From a virus: DNA of 64,000 bases. Below, in pieces: positions 1,798 to 60,767 of this stretch. The translations under genes were made by a program, and so were the position numbers. The notes under the pieces are model-generated. The model had not been told where the DNA came from. It saw nothing but the letters and a program-made list of their open reading frames with translations, and searched no databases. Positions within the stretch are counted from its first letter, which is position 1. Each line of letters opens with the position of its first letter. The stretch lies in the IMG/VR virus record IMGVR_UViG_3300031857_011362, positions 60,443-124,442 of that record. One strand, written 5' to 3'.

Positions 1798-2894
1798 GTA
1801 AAGAACAATATAATTTAAGTAAGCAAACAAACTACCTCAAGCGTACAATGTTTTTAGACCCAGCCGGTCCTGTAACAGTACAACGTTTTGAAGAAGTTAA
1901 GTACCCTCGCATTGCCAAGTATGAAGAAACAGCACGTGGCTTCTTTTGGGTGCCCGAAGAGATTTCGTTGACTAAAGATAAAATGGATCACAAAGATTCC
2001 AGTGATGCTATCAAGCATATTTTTACTAGCAACCTACTAAGACAAACAGCCTTAGACAGTATTCAAGGTCGTGCACCTAGTCAAGTGTTTAGTCCTGTAA
2101 TCAGTATACCTGAACTTGAAGCACTAGTGGGTAACTGGAGTTTCTTTGAGACTAACATTCACAGTAAGTCATACAGTCATATCATTCGCAATGTATATGG
2201 TGTACCTAAAGAAGAATTCAACAAGATACATGATACAAAAGAGATTATTGACATGGCTGCTAGCATCGGTAGATACTATGAAGCACTACATCAACTTAAT
2301 TGTTTAAAAGAAACAGGTTCTGAAGTATCAGAACGTGAACACATTAAAGCTATTTGGATGGCACTACATGCAAGTTATGCATTAGAAGCATTTAGATTTA
2401 TGGTAAGTTTTGCAACAAGTCTTGCTATGGTAGAGAATCGAATTTACATTGGTAACGGAAACATTATCTCCTTGATCCTGCAAGATGAGTTGCTTCACGC
2501 TGAGTGGACAGCATGGTTGATTAATAACGTGACTAAGGATGATACTAGATTTGCTTCTATTGTAGAAGAATGTCGTGTCGAAGTGTATGCATTGTATATG
2601 GAAGTTATTAAAGAAGAAAAAGAGTGGGCCGAGTATCTATTCAGTAAGGGTGTAGTAATTGGCTTGAATGCAGAGATATTAAAAGACTTTGTAGACTTTA
2701 CTGCATTTACTCGTTTGAAAGAAATTGGTATCAAGTACACGGAAAACTATCCTAAGCATAGTCCTATCCCATGGTTCAACAAGCACGTTAATTTAAATAA
2801 AAAACAGGCCGCGCTCCAGGAGACAGAAAGTACATCCTATGTAATAGGGGTAATGTCAGATACAGTTAATTATGATGAGTTGCCAATTCTATGA
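1794..2894 (+). CDS. nrdB: Ribonucleotide reductase beta subunit
   Basis: [19 protein letters not shown] (radical Tyr), EAFRF, QDELLH di-metal ligands, C-terminal QETE..SY. Confidence 0.97.
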
Positions 2895-3430
2895 CGACAA
2901 TTATCAAAATGATACCTCTTCATTGCATTTGAGCCACCTTCTAGCTCACAGTGTGGGCAAGTAGTTTTAAGTTTTGACCCTAATTTTTTGCCCTTCAATA
3001 TATTAGGCAACCCTTTATTCCAAGCAACATATCCTCTAGCCTTAGGACTAGCTAATCTAGCAGCCACAACATTCGCAATGTGCTCTGGTGATTTTTTACG
3101 GCCAGTAAGTTGTTTACTTGCATTGGATTTAAATTCATCGGACCTAATACATCCGGTACCTCCTTCGCCACCGTCTGTCATATTGTGAAGTATCCCGTTA
3201 CCCAAGTCTTTACGACCGTACCATTTGATATAACGTCTTTCTAATGCAAAAGCGCCTAGCTCAGATAGATTTTTCTCTAAAAAAACAATCCTACGTAGAT
3301 CCTTAGGTGTATGTACTCCACCTCTCTTGGTACGATGTGATTGAAATGCTCTGCTATCTTTACCCTTACCAATGTAGTAGGGTTTGCCGTCTTTTCTTAT
3401 ATAGGCGTAGACATAATATGCTAAATACAT
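2870..3430 (-). CDS. GIY-YIG homing endonuclease with basic NUMOD-like tail
   Basis: [28 protein letters not shown]; paralog of 39472..40008. Confidence 0.85.
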
Positions 3431-3559
3431 TGCTGATTGCTCCCTTAAAGCGTTAGAGTAGTTAGGAACTCCAATTCCGTGAACTACACTAATATTTATG
3501 CCATTATCATTGATAATGATAGGTATATCGTGTATAATATAAAATTATAAAGGAAAAAT

Positions 3560-39097: not shown

Positions 39098-39303
39098 TTT
39101 GTTAGAGTGTTAGCAAGAGAAAGACACACTACTATGGATTCTTCGAAGGTCCTTGTAGTGTAGAGCAGAGAGCGGGGTCAGTACCCGTCTAAGAGCATAA
39201 TGGAATGCACTGGTTAAGTATCCCAAGTGACGTACCGAGTCCCGGTCGACTTTATTACACGGGTGAATGATGTCTATAACTATGGAGATATTACTTTAAC
39301 AAA
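39098..39303 (+). ncRNA. Stem-closed structured RNA candidate D
   Basis: 12-bp closing stem TTTGTTAGAGTG/TACTTTAACAAA; internal ACACTAC/GTAGTGT with CTTCGAAG hairpin, GCGGG/CCCGT. Confidence 0.5.
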
Positions 39304-39311
39304 TTTAATAT

Positions 39312-39399
39312 GGAGTATTGGCCGAGCGGTTAAGGCAATGGATTGCTAATCCATCACTGGGCAACCGGTGGGTAGGTTCGATTCCTACATACTCCGCCA
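39312..39399 (+). tRNA. trnS: tRNA-Ser(GCT)
   Basis: Long variable arm, loop TTGCTAA, G73, CCA. Confidence 0.95.
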
Positions 39400-39403
39400 G
39401 AAC

Positions 39404-40194
39404 GTTCTGAGTGTCTCCGGATACTGTGACCCGCAAAGTAGTAGTATGACCCGTTAGGCATAAATAATAGTATGAAAGAATACTATGTTTATGCCTATTT
39501 GAGAGAAGACGGAACTCCTTACTATATTGGTAAAGGTAAAGAAAGACGTGCCTGGGAGCAACATCGTTCTAACGGAAAAGGAGTTCATACTCCATCTGAT
39601 TATAAACGAATAGTGTTATTATATGAAGATTTAGATGAACCCGCCGCATTTAATTTAGAAACTGAATTGATTTCAAAGTATGGAAGACAAGATTTAGGAA
39701 CAGGTATATTAAAAAATATGACCAATGGTGGCGAAGGATCTGCAGGAACTTCACCAGAAACTAATTGGAAAAAAGGTAGTTCGAAAAGAAGTAAAACGAC
39801 TAGTAGTAAAACTAGACAAAAAATAAGCAAAGCAAATAAAAATCGTGATTACCCAAACAATCATACCGAGGAAGTTAGACAAAAGTTAAGCGAGACAACA
39901 AAGAAATCTTGGGAAACAAGACCGAGAACAATGTCCGAAGAACAAAAGAAAAAGATATCAGACGCCGCAAAAGAACGCTGGCGTTTGAGGAAGAACCCGC
40001 CCAGGTAACGCTGGGCTAGTCTGATCCAGACGAAGGAGAAGTAAGTTCGTAACTTACGGGTGGTAGTCTTTAAACCCAAAGGCCGCTGGCAATGCGAGAA
40101 CGGTCCCTGTCGGGAAGCGGGTGGAAGGAGTGTGTGATGGGTATGATAGCGTCATATCTTTCTGTACTATAATTACCGCCGGGGGATGCAGAGC
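39404..40194 (+). ncRNA. Large ornate RNA candidate enclosing a GIY-YIG ORF
   Basis: 5' GTTCTG-A-GTGTCTCCGG pairs with 3' CCGGGGGATGC-AGAGC; many GC-rich hairpins at 39995-40194. Confidence 0.5.
39472..40008 (+). CDS. GIY-YIG homing endonuclease with NUMOD3-like repeats
   Basis: YVYAY..TPYYIGKG, LETELI, NMTNGGEG, repeated S.E.KKKIS; own CATAAATA late motif. Confidence 0.88.
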   Translation: MKEYYVYAYLREDGTPYYIGKGKERRAWEQHRSNGKGVHTPSDYKRIVLLYEDLDEPAAFNLETELISKYGRQDLGTGILKNMTNGGEGSAGTSPETNWKKGSSKRSKTTSSKTRQKISKANKNRDYPNNHTEEVRQKLSETTKKSWETRPRTMSEEQKKKISDAAKERWRLRKNPPR

Positions 40195-40278
40195 ATATTG
40201 AAGCACATTAAAGATAGGGTAGTAGCGGTTCATATGAACCTTAGTACATACCGAGGTAGTTAGTGTGTTTCAATATGC
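40193..40278 (+). ncRNA. Stem-closed structured RNA candidate F
   Basis: 18-bp stem GCATATTGAAGCACATTA/TAGTGTGTTTCAATATGC. Confidence 0.55.
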
Positions 40279-40284
40279 TTTTAT

Positions 40285-40360
40285 GTAGGTGTGTACTGAA
40301 AGGCTAGGTAGCGGATTGCAAATCCGTGCTATGCAGGTTCGAATCCTGTCACCTACTCCA
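40285..40360 (+). tRNA. trnC: tRNA-Cys(GCA)
   Basis: Cloverleaf, loop TTGCAAA, U73, CCA. Confidence 0.93.
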
Positions 40361-41807: not shown

Positions 41808-42410
41808 ATGTATTGTGATTATGGATGCGGTCAAGAATCATCTTTCAAATTGAAGAATGGTAAAAATTGTTGTGCTACGAGAACAGCAAGTTGCCCTGAA
41901 CAAAAAAGAAAAAATTCAGAAGCAACAAAGAAAGTTTATGATGACGGTAAGAGATTACCGGCAGCTCTGGTATATGAAAATTTATCAGAAGAAGTTAAAA
42001 AACGAATGAATTGGAATAAGGGAAACTTTTCTAATACATTGTTTGTTTATAATGGTGTAGGTAATCATAAAGCTGTGTTGATTCAAGAAAAAGGTCACCA
42101 GTGTGAAGATTGTAGATTGACTGAATGGAAATCTAAACCTATACCGTTAGAGTTAGAACATGTTGATGGTGACAACAAAAATAACACAAGAGAAAATCTT
42201 AAGTTGTTATGTTGTAATTGTCATGCTTTGACTCCAACTTGGAGAGGTAGAAATATTAATTCAGGTAAAGTTAAAGTAAGTGACCAAGAACTATTGACAG
42301 CATTGCAAGAATGTAGTAATATACGTCAAGCATTGCAGAAAGTGGGGTTATCTCCGAAAGGTGGTAACTACCAAAGAGCAAATAAATTAAATGCGACCTT
42401 GGTGAAATAG
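41808..42410 (+). CDS. HNH endonuclease overlapping tRNA-Leu 5' end
   Basis: CEDC..LELEHVDGD..NN..ENL..LCCNCHA; RBS AGGAG; CATAAATA upstream. Confidence 0.9.
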   Translation: MYCDYGCGQESSFKLKNGKNCCATRTASCPEQKRKNSEATKKVYDDGKRLPAALVYENLSEEVKKRMNWNKGNFSNTLFVYNGVGNHKAVLIQEKGHQCEDCRLTEWKSKPIPLELEHVDGDNKNNTRENLKLLCCNCHALTPTWRGRNINSGKVKVSDQELLTALQECSNIRQALQKVGLSPKGGNYQRANKLNATLVK

Positions 42411-42690
42411 GTAGACACAAGAGACTTGAGAGTAAAATTTGAGTGCCCTAGTGGAAATGCTAGGAGTAGAACCCGTCAAATTCGGTGAAGGCTGTAAAAT
42501 GCTAATACCGAGCGAAGCCTAAGTAGAAATACTTTTGAACGTGTAGAGACTAGACGGCGGGCATCTAAAGCAGTAATGCTATGATGAAGGTATAGTCCAG
42601 ACCACAAAACTGTAAAGGTAGTGAAAACTATAGTGGTAAGAAAATCTCTCGCCGAAAGGCATCCCGGTTCGATTCCGGGAGGTCGCACCA
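42393..42690 (+). tRNA. trnL: tRNA-Leu(TAA) interrupted by a group I intron (exons 42393-42427, 42641-42690)
   Basis: Spliced arm AGAGA-CTT^AAAA-TCTCT, acceptor GCGACCT/AGGTCGC, long variable arm, CCA. Confidence 0.92.
42428..42640 (+). mobile_element. Group I self-splicing intron (trnL-UAA/IC3-like), 213 nt, no ORF
   Basis: P1 CTT/GAG with U-G, P2 CCTAG/CTAGG, P3 CCGTC/GACGG, P4 TTCGGT/ACCGAG, P7 GACTA/TAGTC, terminal G. Confidence 0.92.
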
Positions 42691-57922: not shown

Positions 57923-59734
57923 ATGAAGCGAAATAAAACAGCAGTAGCATTAGCAGTTGACGAAATCTCAATTCCCAGTATTGAACCCCTGCAACAAGAA
58001 TATTTGGTAGATAATATTATTGATGCAATAACTAAGTTTTTAAAATCAGTAACAAAAAAAGCCATCGTTGTACAGGCTCCAACTGGTAGTGGTAAAAGTT
58101 TTACTATTACCAATTACACTGCAATTCTCATTGCACAACATTTTAAGAAAATCAAAAATGTTTTCTTTGCGGCACCATCACAAGAATGTGTTGACGAGCC
58201 TCTAGAAAGCATGATGAAGTACGATGGTACTTACATCGGTAACAAGCTAGTCAAAGTTTACGACAGTAAGCAATTAAAGTATTCATTAGAAAATGATATT
58301 GATTTGCCGGGTGACATTCGTTATTTCTTTATGACTACACAGTACATGTACGGTCTATATGAAAATTATGATCCTGCAAATCCTGATGACTTTGATTTGA
58401 TGTTGCCTGATCTGATTTTTAATGATGAGGCACATCGTGGTTTAGGTGTACCTGATAAGTCAACTACTAAAGATGACCAAGGAACTACTAATAATAACTG
58501 GGAACCCAAATGGTTTGACATGCAGACTGCAATGATGGATAGTGGTACTGTTGTCATTCACTTGACTGCAACACCTACGCAATCTCAACGTATGAAGACA
58601 TTGGTTGGTGCTGACAAGTACATACAATTACCTACAATGCCTAAATTCAAAGAATCAAACGCATTCACTAAGTTTGAATATCACGGCAATCGTGAAGATT
58701 TGTACGAGACATTAGAAGCCGCTTACAAGACATTTGCGTGGCAAGTTAATGAGATTCGCAATCAACAGATTTTGATTCCACAAGACACTTGGGATTCGGT
58801 GTCGGACAAGATGCCTAAAATGATGCCCGGCATCATTATTAGTTTGGGACGCAACAATGCAGTTAATGGTATTCCAATTGATGCAGTAATGAAAGACGTT
58901 AAGGAGTTTGTCAAACGAATCAATGCGGTATTGTTTGTTTCTACATCTAAGGAAAAACATTTTGATGGTAAGACTATCAAGCGCATGAGTGACGGCATTA
59001 AATTGGCTAATAGCCCTGCTTATCTAAATCGACCGCTTGTAATGGTTGTTGTTGATTCAGGTAAGATGGGTATTAATATTCCTCGATTGATTACAGCAGT
59101 AGTTTGCAAAGTCCCTGCACAACAAAAGATTCATAACAGTTATACACAGTTTGTTGCACGTACTTGTCGTTTGCCTTTCTTCCGAGATCATGAACTGGGA
59201 ATTGAGTTTATTCGCAAAATGAAAGTGTCCGATGAGGTGAAATCTTTGGTGTGTTCTTATTATTCATTATTGTCTACCTCGTTTGCTATTCTTCCGCAAG
59301 ATACTGAACTGATGCAATTAGTAGAAGAATTCTACACAGAAGATACATTTGAAATGATTGATGGCATTGATTACATTCTTAAAGGAGTCTTTGGGGGCAA
59401 AGACCCAAAAAAGTTAGTATCGGGCTTGCGGCTCGCTTTCGACAGAGGACAACTAAACTCGTTGTTTCGAAAGGACCACTGCGAAGCCTGCAAAGGTACT
59501 TGCTTTGAACAAGCAATTAAGGGTTACATCAATCAATATGGAGATGATACTTCTAAGCTAGGTGATTTTATCAATGATTGGAAAACTACATTGCAAGTTG
59601 ACCACATTGATGGTAATCGTTATAATAATGACCCATCTAATCATGCAACAGTATGCCCGAACGTTCACATGTTAAAGACACAACGACAAAAGGATTTTCT
59701 AAACACATACACTTTTGGTAAAGCAAAGGATTGA
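57923..59734 (+). CDS. SF2 (DEAH) helicase fused to C-terminal HNH nuclease
   Basis: APTGSGKS, DEAH, LTATP, GINIP, QFVAR..R; CEAC..QVDHIDG..NN..N..VCPN.H. Confidence 0.82.
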   Translation: MKRNKTAVALAVDEISIPSIEPLQQEYLVDNIIDAITKFLKSVTKKAIVVQAPTGSGKSFTITNYTAILIAQHFKKIKNVFFAAPSQECVDEPLESMMKYDGTYIGNKLVKVYDSKQLKYSLENDIDLPGDIRYFFMTTQYMYGLYENYDPANPDDFDLMLPDLIFNDEAHRGLGVPDKSTTKDDQGTTNNNWEPKWFDMQTAMMDSGTVVIHLTATPTQSQRMKTLVGADKYIQLPTMPKFKESNAFTKFEYHGNREDLYETLEAAYKTFAWQVNEIRNQQILIPQDTWDSVSDKMPKMMPGIIISLGRNNAVNGIPIDAVMKDVKEFVKRINAVLFVSTSKEKHFDGKTIKRMSDGIKLANSPAYLNRPLVMVVVDSGKMGINIPRLITAVVCKVPAQQKIHNSYTQFVARTCRLPFFRDHELGIEFIRKMKVSDEVKSLVCSYYSLLSTSFAILPQDTELMQLVEEFYTEDTFEMIDGIDYILKGVFGGKDPKKLVSGLRLAFDRGQLNSLFRKDHCEACKGTCFEQAIKGYINQYGDDTSKLGDFINDWKTTLQVDHIDGNRYNNDPSNHATVCPNVHMLKTQRQKDFLNTYTFGKAKD

Positions 59735-59765: not shown

Positions 59766-60767
59766 ATGACAACATACGCACTCATCGATACGGCAAACAC
59801 TTTTTTTAGAGCACGCCACGTAGCATCACGTGGTGCTTCCGCAGAAGAAAAGGTAGCACAAGCATTGCATATCACCCTCGCTTCAGTGAACCAAGCGGTC
59901 CAGCGTTATAAGATCGATCACGTTGTCTTCTGCTTAGAGGGTAGATCGTTTCGCCGTGATCTGTACGCACCTTATAAGAGGAATCGTGTAGTTGATGAAC
60001 AATCAGTTACTGAAGAAGAATTGGAAGAGTCACGCCAATTTTGGGAAACGTATCAAGTTTTCACAGATTATATTTCACAGAAAACTAATGCAAGTGTCCT
60101 AAGGCATGAACGTGCTGAAGCCGATGACATGATTGCAAGATTTATCGCACTGCATCCAGCAGATAAACATTTTATCATCTCAACGGACACAGATTATGAC
60201 CAATTAATAACCGACAAAGTTTTTAGATACTCGGGCGTGGCCGGAGAACTTGTAACTCTCACTGGTTATCTCAAAGAGAATGGTCGGCCTGTTATTGATA
60301 AGAAAACTAAAGAGCCTAAACTGTTGGAAGATCCTGAGTACGGTCTCTTTAAAAAATTAGTCAGAGGAGATACATCCGACAATGTACATCCATCATACCC
60401 AGGTGCCAGAGAAAAAGGCACTAAAAACAAAATTGGAATCCGAGAGGCGTTCGAAGATCGTCACAAGCAAGGATTTCATTACAATTCGTTTATGCTTAGC
60501 CGATTTATCGACTATGATGGTAAGGAAGTGCGAGTTAGAGATGCATTTGAGAGGAACCGCACCCTGATTGATCTTACTGCACAACCCCAAGAAATCAAAG
60601 ATGCTGTGGATCAACGTATTCGAGAAAGTGTTCGCACAACTATCACCCCGACCGTCGGTGTACATTTCCTTCGCTTCTGTGGCAAGTATGAGTTGGTGAA
60701 GTTGAGCGAAAAGGCCGAGACCTTCAGTGCATGGTTGAACCGCCCTTACACAGGAGTACTAGCATGA
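59766..60767 (+). CDS. RNase H / 5'-3' exonuclease (T4 rnh-like)
   Basis: LID..N.FFR, YK.NR, EADD.I, STD.DY.QL, GD.SDNV. Confidence 0.9.
   Translation: MTTYALIDTANTFFRARHVASRGASAEEKVAQALHITLASVNQAVQRYKIDHVVFCLEGRSFRRDLYAPYKRNRVVDEQSVTEEELEESRQFWETYQVFTDYISQKTNASVLRHERAEADDMIARFIALHPADKHFIISTDTDYDQLITDKVFRYSGVAGELVTLTGYLKENGRPVIDKKTKEPKLLEDPEYGLFKKLVRGDTSDNVHPSYPGAREKGTKNKIGIREAFEDRHKQGFHYNSFMLSRFIDYDGKEVRVRDAFERNRTLIDLTAQPQEIKDAVDQRIRESVRTTITPTVGVHFLRFCGKYELVKLSEKAETFSAWLNRPYTGVLA

Follow-up and report, generated by a model that had tools for sequence, protein, structure and literature searches.

The stretch of DNA analysed here (the window) comprises 64,000 nucleotides of the IMG/VR virus record IMGVR_UViG_3300031857_011362 (positions 60,443 to 124,442), a 124-kb record that is estimated to be 35% complete and that derives from a large uncultivated phage. 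The window contains an array of 28 tRNA genes at 34.3-45.5 kb, as identified with ARAGORN, and within this array the interval 39404-40194 combines a structured non-coding RNA with an open reading frame (ORF) for a putative GIY-YIG homing endonuclease. The upstream neighbour of the interval is the gene for tRNA-Ser(GCU) (39312-39399, plus strand, ARAGORN) and the downstream neighbour is the gene for tRNA-Cys (40285-40360). An earlier note on this DNA, made from the sequence alone, had described the interval as a single RNA that enclosed the ORF in one of its loops. The layout of the interval is instead a 5' stub, followed by the endonuclease gene and then by an RNA gene that is complete and includes hairpins of its own (A', B' and C').

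A covariance model of the RNA family (R1), based on an alignment of 42 ORF-less copies (A3), was used in a cmsearch of the window. It identified a complete RNA copy on the plus strand at 39994-40195, which covers model positions 1-198 with a score of 178.8 bits (E 5e-49). A second match was weak and partial, and solid for hairpins A and B only (39401-39435). This segment is an orphan 5' stub on the plus strand, left from an RNA allele of the class here called type-1, with hairpin A at 39406-39421 (loop UGUC) and hairpin B at 39424-39436 (loop GACCC). The limits of the stub are also seen in a blastn comparison with the empty allele L055 (loci in related contigs are denoted by L and a number), in which the homology ends at 39435 and restarts at 40055. 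The loose ends of contigs from RNA libraries fall at the same two breakpoints, 39435/40055, and one metatranscriptome contig runs from tRNA-Ser into the stub, departs from the window at 39435 and continues as an ORF-less allele. Between the breakpoints lies an inserted cassette of 619 nt (39436-40054, plus strand) that replaces 22 nt of the recipient RNA gene, which in L055 comprise the B/C junction GAUGAGAAGU and the 5' part of hairpin C.

Close to its left end, the cassette contains a second, older stub on the plus strand (TAGTATGACCCG, 39439-39453) that corresponds to the 5' half and the loop of a type-2 hairpin B. This stub, identified by comparison with natural type-2 alleles, is located in the same place in all four endonuclease loci (the window, L003, L004 and L117), where the type-1 stub precedes it and the gene follows. 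The presence of such a second stub, derived from a type-2 allele, suggests that invasion took place in successive rounds. It is followed by a hairpin over the start codon (39455-39497, plus strand), in which the region of the motif CATAAATA pairs with codons 5-8, and by the Seg-like GIY-YIG homing endonuclease gene (39472-40008, plus strand; 178 amino acids). The last 15 nt of the ORF are the first 15 nt of the RNA copy, and the stop codon TAA (40006-40008) is placed in loop A'. The ORF and the motif at 39459-39466 had both been recognised in the earlier note, and its boundaries for the unit agree with the limits of homology in related contigs.

The fold of the RNA has strong support from covariation and consists of seven helices (hairpins A, B, C, D and E, the long helix L, and hairpin G), a kissing loop and a pseudoknot. 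In the complete copy in the window, helices A' (39999-40016), B' (40019-40031) and C' (40041-40057) are followed by the junction GGGUGGU (40058-40064), helix D (40066-40083), helix E (40084-40096), helix L (40103-40120 paired with 40176-40187), helix G (about 40127-40168) and the 3' tail GCAGAGCA (40188-40195). For the comparison of related sequences, 95 copies (A5) and 70 more diverse matches (A7) were aligned to R1. In the alignment of the 95 copies, 98.5% of the cells in the structure were paired, as compared with 84.6% in column shuffles and 36-46% with slid partners, and 28 pairs showed compensatory changes. The loop of hairpin B is GACCC in the family fold. Helix L is formed by GUCCCU..CG..GCGG paired with CCGC-CG-RGGGAY near the 3' end, and it is capped by the variable hairpin G. 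It displays multiple double changes in L182, L193, L155, L205 and divergent members, and the compensatory changes in the four named loci rule out a local UCCC/GGGA hairpin.

Mutual information identified the kissing contact between loops A and C, which is GUC/GAC, AUC/GAU or GUU/GAC in type-1 alleles and ACG/CGU in all type-2 alleles. In the window, the ACG of loop A' (GUAACG, 40005-40010, plus strand) pairs with the CGU of loop C' (40047-40051), in accordance with the loop tables. The same type of analysis identified a pseudoknot in which the ACCC of loop B pairs with the GGGU of the junction 3' of hairpin C, with two independent compensatory pairs, 29:64 from A:U to G:C and 31:62 from C:G to A:U. 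Position 64 covaries with both loop B (29) and the loop-D purine (77), and the second pair, 31:62, favours loop B; a pairing of loop D with GGY was set aside on this ground. The loop D partner may represent a base triple or an alternative fold. Two other candidate elements were dropped, namely a 3-bp end helix CGU (3-5) x ACG (103-105), for which type-2 and divergent members contain neither strand, and a kink-turn in helix G, where the UGAU/UGAU internal loop is not universal.

The window copy contains every conserved helix (A-E, L and G) as well as the kissing loop between A and C and the pseudoknot of loop B with the junction. Its R1 alignment contains five non-standard pairs, four of them in the end helix that was later dropped (3-5/103-105) and one in helix G, and its loop B' is GAUCC, with which a G.U-compatible pairing to GGGU remains. 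The 3' flank of the ORF folds better than shuffled sequences (z = -4.6), consistent with the highly structured flanks that the earlier note had described. Four of the helices listed there are real and covary in relatives: GCCCAG/CTGGGC (39999-40016) is A', GTCTG/CAGAC is B', GTAAGT/ACTTAC is C', and TATGA/TCATA is the distal part of G.

Members of the RNA family lie within the tRNA arrays of uncultivated phages, most of them from fresh water, and well over 150 contigs contain one. One 26-nt string of the core is shared exactly by more than 117 IMG/VR contigs among the matches listed, and most of the copies that contain it are ORF-less and about 190-200 nt long. A second scan identified 51 further, more divergent copies. 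In nearly all contigs with the 26-nt string, the segments that flank the ORF in the window are contiguous; their co-occurrence as one RNA in ORF-less relatives had been proposed beforehand as a test, and it was observed in large numbers of ORF-less alleles. The unit typically starts 1-3 nt after the CCA of a tRNA. The distance from a same-strand tRNA to the start of the RNA is at most 5 nt in 48 of 82 loci, and the next tRNA begins 2-18 nt after the end of the RNA in 30 of 84 loci. Because its start and end adjoin the flanking tRNAs, the RNA occupies a tRNA slot, and tRNA processing would define its ends. The RNA is probably released from the array transcript by tRNA-processing enzymes.

Searches of Rfam 15 with the window segment 39095-40290 gave nothing except tRNA-Ser at E <= 10, and at the same threshold the window region, the ORF-less loci and one isolated copy matched only tRNAs, the tRNA-Leu intron and noise. 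This agrees with the earlier note, which had seen no signature of a group I or group II intron, RNase P or tmRNA. A blastn search against 50,697 phage records showed no match over the RNA. The freshwater cyanophage S-SRM01 contains a related endonuclease and has no match to R1. The 18-nt motif at the 3' end had 26 matches in the genomes of 185,579 bacterial and archaeal species, which is about chance level, and none of these fitted the model. A literature search with core sequence strings found no paper. The gene that hosts the cassette encodes a ~198-nt, highly conserved, knotted non-coding RNA, and its family is absent from Rfam 15.

Some members of the family are longer. L031-L034, L051, L061, L064, L091, L092, L187 and others have 50-80 extra nt, in the form of added hairpins, between the GGGUGGU junction and hairpin D, and the same variants show variable expansions of hairpin G. 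In the window, a long near-perfect hairpin (40193-40281) is located immediately 3' of the RNA tail, outside the family model, and its sequence is also found 3' of the RNA in many contigs (e.g. L013, L016, L017, L026).

To describe expression, we used contigs from four lake metatranscriptome runs, representing four studies. The summed word depth was 268 to 32,789 on the RNA core versus ~120 on the 5' part of the endonuclease gene; because the contigs sum over many related phages and DNA carry-over is possible, these values are good but not conclusive evidence of a very abundant stable RNA. The 3' half of the endonuclease gene had zero cover. An exact 610-nt contig spans tRNA-Ser, the stub and the start of the gene, and in another contig a sequencing adapter follows directly after ...CGCAGAG, at the conserved 3' end. 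Most contigs with the RNA core come from ORF-less type-1 alleles, since they have loose ends at 40055. No splice-like joints were seen in the RNA-library contigs, which can miss rare forms.

The protein encoded by the cassette matches PHROG 314 'homing endonuclease' (E 2e-14) and shows 30-40% identity to annotated Seg-like homing endonucleases (37%) and to cyanophage proteins. The GIY/YIG motif pair, represented by YVY (residues 5-7) and YIG (residues 18-20), is invariant in six relatives (A6), as are R26, E63 and N82, which we take to be equivalent to R27, E75 and N90 of I-TevI. The AlphaFold2 model has a pLDDT of 61 overall, 74-84 in the N-terminal domain and 64-84 over residues 1-70, and all top Foldseek matches in PDB are GIY-YIG domains (UvrC 1yd6 and 1ycz; PD-T4-3), with a probability of 1.0, an E of 4e-3 and a TM of 0.5 on the target. 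According to the model, residues 1-80 adopt the GIY-YIG fold. The Pfam domain NUMOD3 scored 18.5 bits, under the cut-off of 20.4, and a phmmer search of the protein against PDB gave nothing useful. The dN/dS ratio among intact copies is 0.09-0.17, and judging from these comparisons the ORF is intact and under purifying selection. The hairpin over the start codon has a dG of -20.5 kcal/mol (z -6.7), and its stem is kept in L003, L004 and L117. The motif CATAAATA is not confined to this gene, as it also precedes the HNH gene and a second GIY-YIG gene in the window.

The endonuclease gene is polymorphic in its presence. The RNA alone fills the slot between tRNA-Ser(GCU) and tRNA-Cys in L012, L113 and L091; in the window and L117, the slot contains the RNA together with the gene. 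In the three syntenic ORF-less alleles, the RNA starts 1-2 nt after tRNA-Ser(GCU). A protein-based search identified the ORF also in L003 and L004, at 97% and 86% identity, and several hairpins in these loci showed compensatory changes. Both flanks of the ORF are conserved there, and the DNA beyond the boundaries of the unit is unrelated to the window. Among roughly 150 RNA loci, the gene is carried only by the window, L003/L079, L004/L105 and L117, and the four loci with an intact endonuclease show 76-97% identity.

The RNA alleles at these loci are mosaics of two allele classes. Type-2 alleles are characterised by loop A' GUAACG, the junction GAAGGAGAAGU and loop C' UUCGU. Natural type-2 alleles are common, usually follow directly after a tRNA and lack the endonuclease; on this ground, an origin of the type-2 5' domain from the endonuclease was rejected. 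In the first comparison set, which contained 95 copies, all endonuclease-free alleles were of type-1 except L019 and L048. Positions 1-60 of the endonuclease-linked RNAs are at most 66% identical to any endonuclease-free allele in this set and 70-85% identical among themselves, and positions 61-185 match endonuclease-free alleles, another one at each locus, with mostly 96-100% identity. The identity breaks sharply at RNA position ~60. The last third of the RNA in L004 (positions 130-185) has no close match. The stubs of the endonuclease loci represent three different type-1 loop-A types, and the cassette is found in at least four backgrounds, which differ in the loop type of the stub, the 3' part of the RNA and the flanking tRNAs. 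An intact GAUGAGAAGU is present in 67 of the 77 distinct endonuclease-free alleles in the first, type-1-dominated set versus none of the six linked alleles, and hairpin C also differs between the two groups.

Another four loci (L048, L049, L057 and L104) contain, about 60 nt upstream of the RNA, only a remnant of the gene that joins its first 13 codons directly to its last codons. The remnant apparently resulted from a deletion between two TTGAG(A)GAAGA repeats, and its upstream neighbour is a protein gene rather than a tRNA gene. These alleles are the decay stage expected in a homing cycle. The endonuclease-bearing allele is present in DNA runs from many lake studies.

We consider it probable, at roughly 0.75, that a free-standing Seg-like GIY-YIG cassette invaded the phage RNA gene and carried with it a replacement type-2 5' domain. 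The mobile unit (39436-40054) comprises the endonuclease gene and the type-2 5' domain, that is, hairpins A' and B', the junction and hairpin C'. It has displaced 22 nt of a type-1 allele and left hairpins A and B of the recipient as a dead upstream stub, and a chimeric full-length RNA gene is rebuilt downstream from the type-2 5' domain and the recipient's own 3' two-thirds. The ORF reads into the 5' end of the RNA and stops at a UAA that pre-exists in the natural type-2 loop A'. Since loops A' and C' are both inside the cassette, the ACG/CGU kissing contact is matched in every chimera, whatever the loop type of the recipient.

In such a cycle, the enzyme would cut endonuclease-free type-1 alleles near the conserved junction or hairpin C, and repair would copy the cassette from an endonuclease-bearing genome during mixed infection. 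The distribution of alleles suggests that the type-1 allele is the likely homing target, and cassette-bearing alleles would be immune because they lack an intact GAUGAGAAGU and a type-1 hairpin C. The expression of the gene may be similar to that in T4, in that read-through transcripts would bury the start codon in the hairpin, and a late-type promoter at CATAAATA in the 5' arm of the hairpin would start transcripts that are unable to form it.

Several observations weigh against this interpretation. The protein has no Pfam GIY-YIG match at E <= 0.1, and the confidence of its structure model is no more than moderate, with an overall pLDDT of 61. The motif CATAAATA, a putative promoter, is not enriched in the window, where six were found versus seven expected. 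The activity of the enzyme and its cleavage site are putative predictions from sequence, and the summed depths of the RNA-library contigs may include other phages and DNA, as mentioned above. Some of the chimerism could be due to ordinary recombination rather than homing, since endonuclease-free type-2 alleles are common and the family is generally mosaic. The independent invasions may also be few, with one founding event followed by homologous exchange, because the four loci have almost the same left junction.

The near identity of the left junction in the four loci also fits a single ancestral event of a passive kind, in which the RNA gene was partially duplicated in tandem and an immobile endonuclease gene that does not target the RNA was inserted by chance between the copies. 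The family recombines freely in any case. We regard this origin as unlikely, however, because the cassette occurs in at least four backgrounds, purifying selection acts on the ORF, some sites are empty and others contain a remnant, and the allele is distributed over DNA runs from many lake studies.

The RNA enclosing the ORF that was envisaged in the earlier note would be ~790 nt long, with 39401-39455 and 40009-40195 folding together around the ORF as a giant loop insertion and with the stub hairpins A and B serving this RNA. The minimum-free-energy structure calculated for the full 885 nt indeed contains a pairing of 39411-39418 with sequence near 40180, and the stub hairpins are mostly intact in all four loci. 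The centroid fold, however, drops the closing helix, and the ORF is not enclosed by one RNA, because a complete copy with its own A', B' and C' sits downstream of it. Loop C' (CGU) can form the kissing contact with loop A' (ACG) but not with the GUC-type loop A of the stub, and natural type-2 RNAs share the 5' domain without any stub. Furthermore, the proposed closing helix of about 16 bp between 39404-20 and 40179-94 fails covariation, as both of its strands are engaged in other covarying helices. Its 5' strand belongs to the local helix A, where five of five pairs show a compensatory change, and its 3' strand is the 3' half of helix L, which pairs with 40103-40120 and has many compensatory changes. 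Two other suggested pairings were replaced in a similar manner. Within GGTGG-TAGT/ACTA-TTACC, the CCGC is the partner of GCGG in helix L and the TAGT positions show uncompensated variation, and rather than ACCCG(C/T) pairing with (G/A)CGGGT across the ORF, the ACCC of loop B covaries with GGGU (40058-40061) in the downstream copy. A single large RNA is therefore quite improbable. The part of the earlier description that stands is the invasion of a roughly 200-nt RNA gene (given there as ~250 nt) by a homing endonuclease; the part that does not is the looping of the gene out of a single RNA.

The physical linkage of the two genes, and the overlap between the end of the ORF and the 5' end of the RNA, could alternatively point to a functional partnership like that of the HEARO/IscB omega RNA, with the RNA as a guide or activator of the endonuclease or as a substrate that it processes. 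An unrelated ORF of ~97 amino acids (start MNNRDREILLIAQEECAEV...) also reads into the 5' end of type-2 RNAs (L224:1877-2170, L227:634-924 and L260:11597-11887), and it ends with ...EPNPPR at the UAA of loop A', giving it the same C-terminal tail as the endonuclease. Because this ORF overlaps the RNA in the same way, the overlap with the endonuclease gene is incidental. GIY-YIG/NUMOD enzymes are moreover established to recognise DNA through protein, and only the handful of loci listed above, among roughly 150 RNA loci, carry the gene. An RNA-dependent nuclease, which the earlier note had mentioned in the form of an endonuclease-associated RNA, is accordingly very unlikely. Least probable of all is a self-splicing (group I/II) or otherwise excised intron with the endonuclease as its ORF. 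In favour of an intron, phage endonuclease genes are often intron-borne and the same window has a true group I intron in tRNA-Leu(UAA) beside an HNH endonuclease gene. The structured RNA interrupts no gene, however, since ORF-less relatives keep the whole RNA stand-alone between tRNAs, no Rfam intron model (group I RF00028 included) matched at E <= 10 while the tRNA-Leu intron was found at 57 bits, and the RNA-library contigs contain no joints.

The tRNA array and the remainder of the window contain further elements of related types. The gene for tRNA-Leu(UAA) (42393-42690), which was missed by ARAGORN, contains a group I intron of 213 nt between U34 and A35 (42428-42640, Rfam 57 bits), and the joined exons form a clean 85-nt tRNA. 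A similar intron match was also found in L032. A free-standing HNH endonuclease ORF (41808-42410) ends inside the 5' exon of this tRNA and has CATAAATA upstream. Between tRNA-Asp and tRNA-Ser, there is a small RNA (39113-39280) with an RNA-library contig depth of 120-736 and no match in Rfam. Sequencing adapters abut 39113/39117 and 39280, which suggests a discrete species of ~168 nt. The second GIY-YIG endonuclease gene (2870-3430, minus strand) encodes 186 amino acids with 56% identity over the catalytic domain. It is flanked by a glutaredoxin-like gene and by a gene resembling that for the small subunit of ribonucleotide reductase, with the 3' end of which it overlaps, and it has CATAAATA upstream at 3493-3500. 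Finally, an ORF of 603 amino acids (57923-59734) has a helicase-like N-terminal match and a C-terminal HNH endonuclease match (PHROG 16 and PHROG 14736).

The interest of the locus lies mainly in the RNA family. The family is knotted and absent from Rfam, its 26-mer is exact in more than 100 phage contigs, and it is very abundant in lake RNA libraries. The locus contributes a fold with much stronger support, in which the kissing loop has three pair sets that can replace one another, and it represents a natural 'experiment' in which the 5' domain of the RNA is a separable module. It also provides evidence that the RNA gene is conserved enough to serve as a homing site. With low confidence, the RNA can be suggested to be stable and to act in trans by binding a factor of the host or the phage that is connected with tRNA or translation, or with the evasion of defence. 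A more far-reaching idea, which we consider doubtful, is that the ~198-nt RNA constitutes a new functional class (a ribozyme, or an RNA acting on tRNA, translation or host defence) that is among the most abundant lake phage transcripts, with the cassette as a natural domain-swap device that carries both A'/C' kissing loops into every invaded allele.

The closest analogue to the cassette is SegB of T4. SegB is a free-standing GIY-YIG homing endonuclease encoded in a tRNA cluster; a conserved tRNA motif forms part of its target site, and RNA genes next to it are transferred along with it (PMC2330249). In both cases, a GIY-YIG gene is located inside a phage tRNA array and the target, here predicted, is the conserved sequence of a structural-RNA gene; both genes spread with flanking RNA genes, and relatives lack the gene at the same locus. 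The gene in the window differs from segB in that it resides within the gene for a structured RNA other than a tRNA and overlaps the 5' end of this RNA, and in that a replacement domain of the same RNA is co-transferred, which rebuilds the gene and leaves a stub. The two are likened by their features rather than by sequence similarity, and the activity of the enzyme described here is predicted. A second parallel from T4 is I-TevI, the expression of which is, as Gott et al. reportedly found in 1988, controlled by a late promoter and a hairpin that hides the ribosome-binding site. Similarly, a strong hairpin (z -6.7) buries the start codon in the cassette and holds a T4-late-like NATAAATA motif in its 5' arm, and both proteins are GIY-YIG enzymes with a C-terminal region, here predicted, of the NUMOD type. 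Unlike the situation for I-TevI, there is no intron at this locus, and the promoter is putative, its motif not being enriched in the window.

The RNA itself may be compared with the stable RNAs C and D of T4 (rnaC and rnaD, also called species 1 and 2), which are encoded in the tRNA cluster of that phage. They are likewise non-tRNA stable RNAs placed between tRNAs and presumably cut out by tRNA-processing enzymes. The RNA in the window is larger (~198 nt), knotted through a kissing loop and a pseudoknot, and belongs to a family that is far more conserved and widespread; the comparison is made by description and is an analogy only. The earlier note had put forward GOLLD and ROOL, which are ornate phage-borne RNAs, often located beside tRNAs, in lake samples (PMC12286853). 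The RNA family shares these features with them, again as an analogy only, and does not belong to either, since the Rfam models do not match and GOLLD and ROOL, at 600-900 nt, are 3-4 times larger than the ~198-nt RNA. Nor are multimeric cages, as formed by GOLLD and ROOL, indicated for the ~198-nt RNA, which is known here from its sequence.

With respect to the insertion architecture, the cassette resembles mobE in the nrdA gene of Aeromonas phage Aeh1, a free-standing endonuclease gene that splits a host gene that keeps working. In both systems, a mobile gene has inserted into a gene that is essential or conserved, and the function of this host gene is maintained by the way in which the insertion is built. 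The difference is that the preserved gene here encodes a folded RNA and that the part supplied is a whole tertiary-contact module with both kissing loops. Homing endonucleases preserve protein genes by means of introns, inteins or gene splitting. The folded RNA gene at this locus seems to be preserved in another way, in that the cassette supplies a replacement domain and the tertiary partners travel together. If true, this adds a further strategy to those by which selfish nucleases are known to spare their hosts, and it would provide a specific pair of a nuclease and its target for study.

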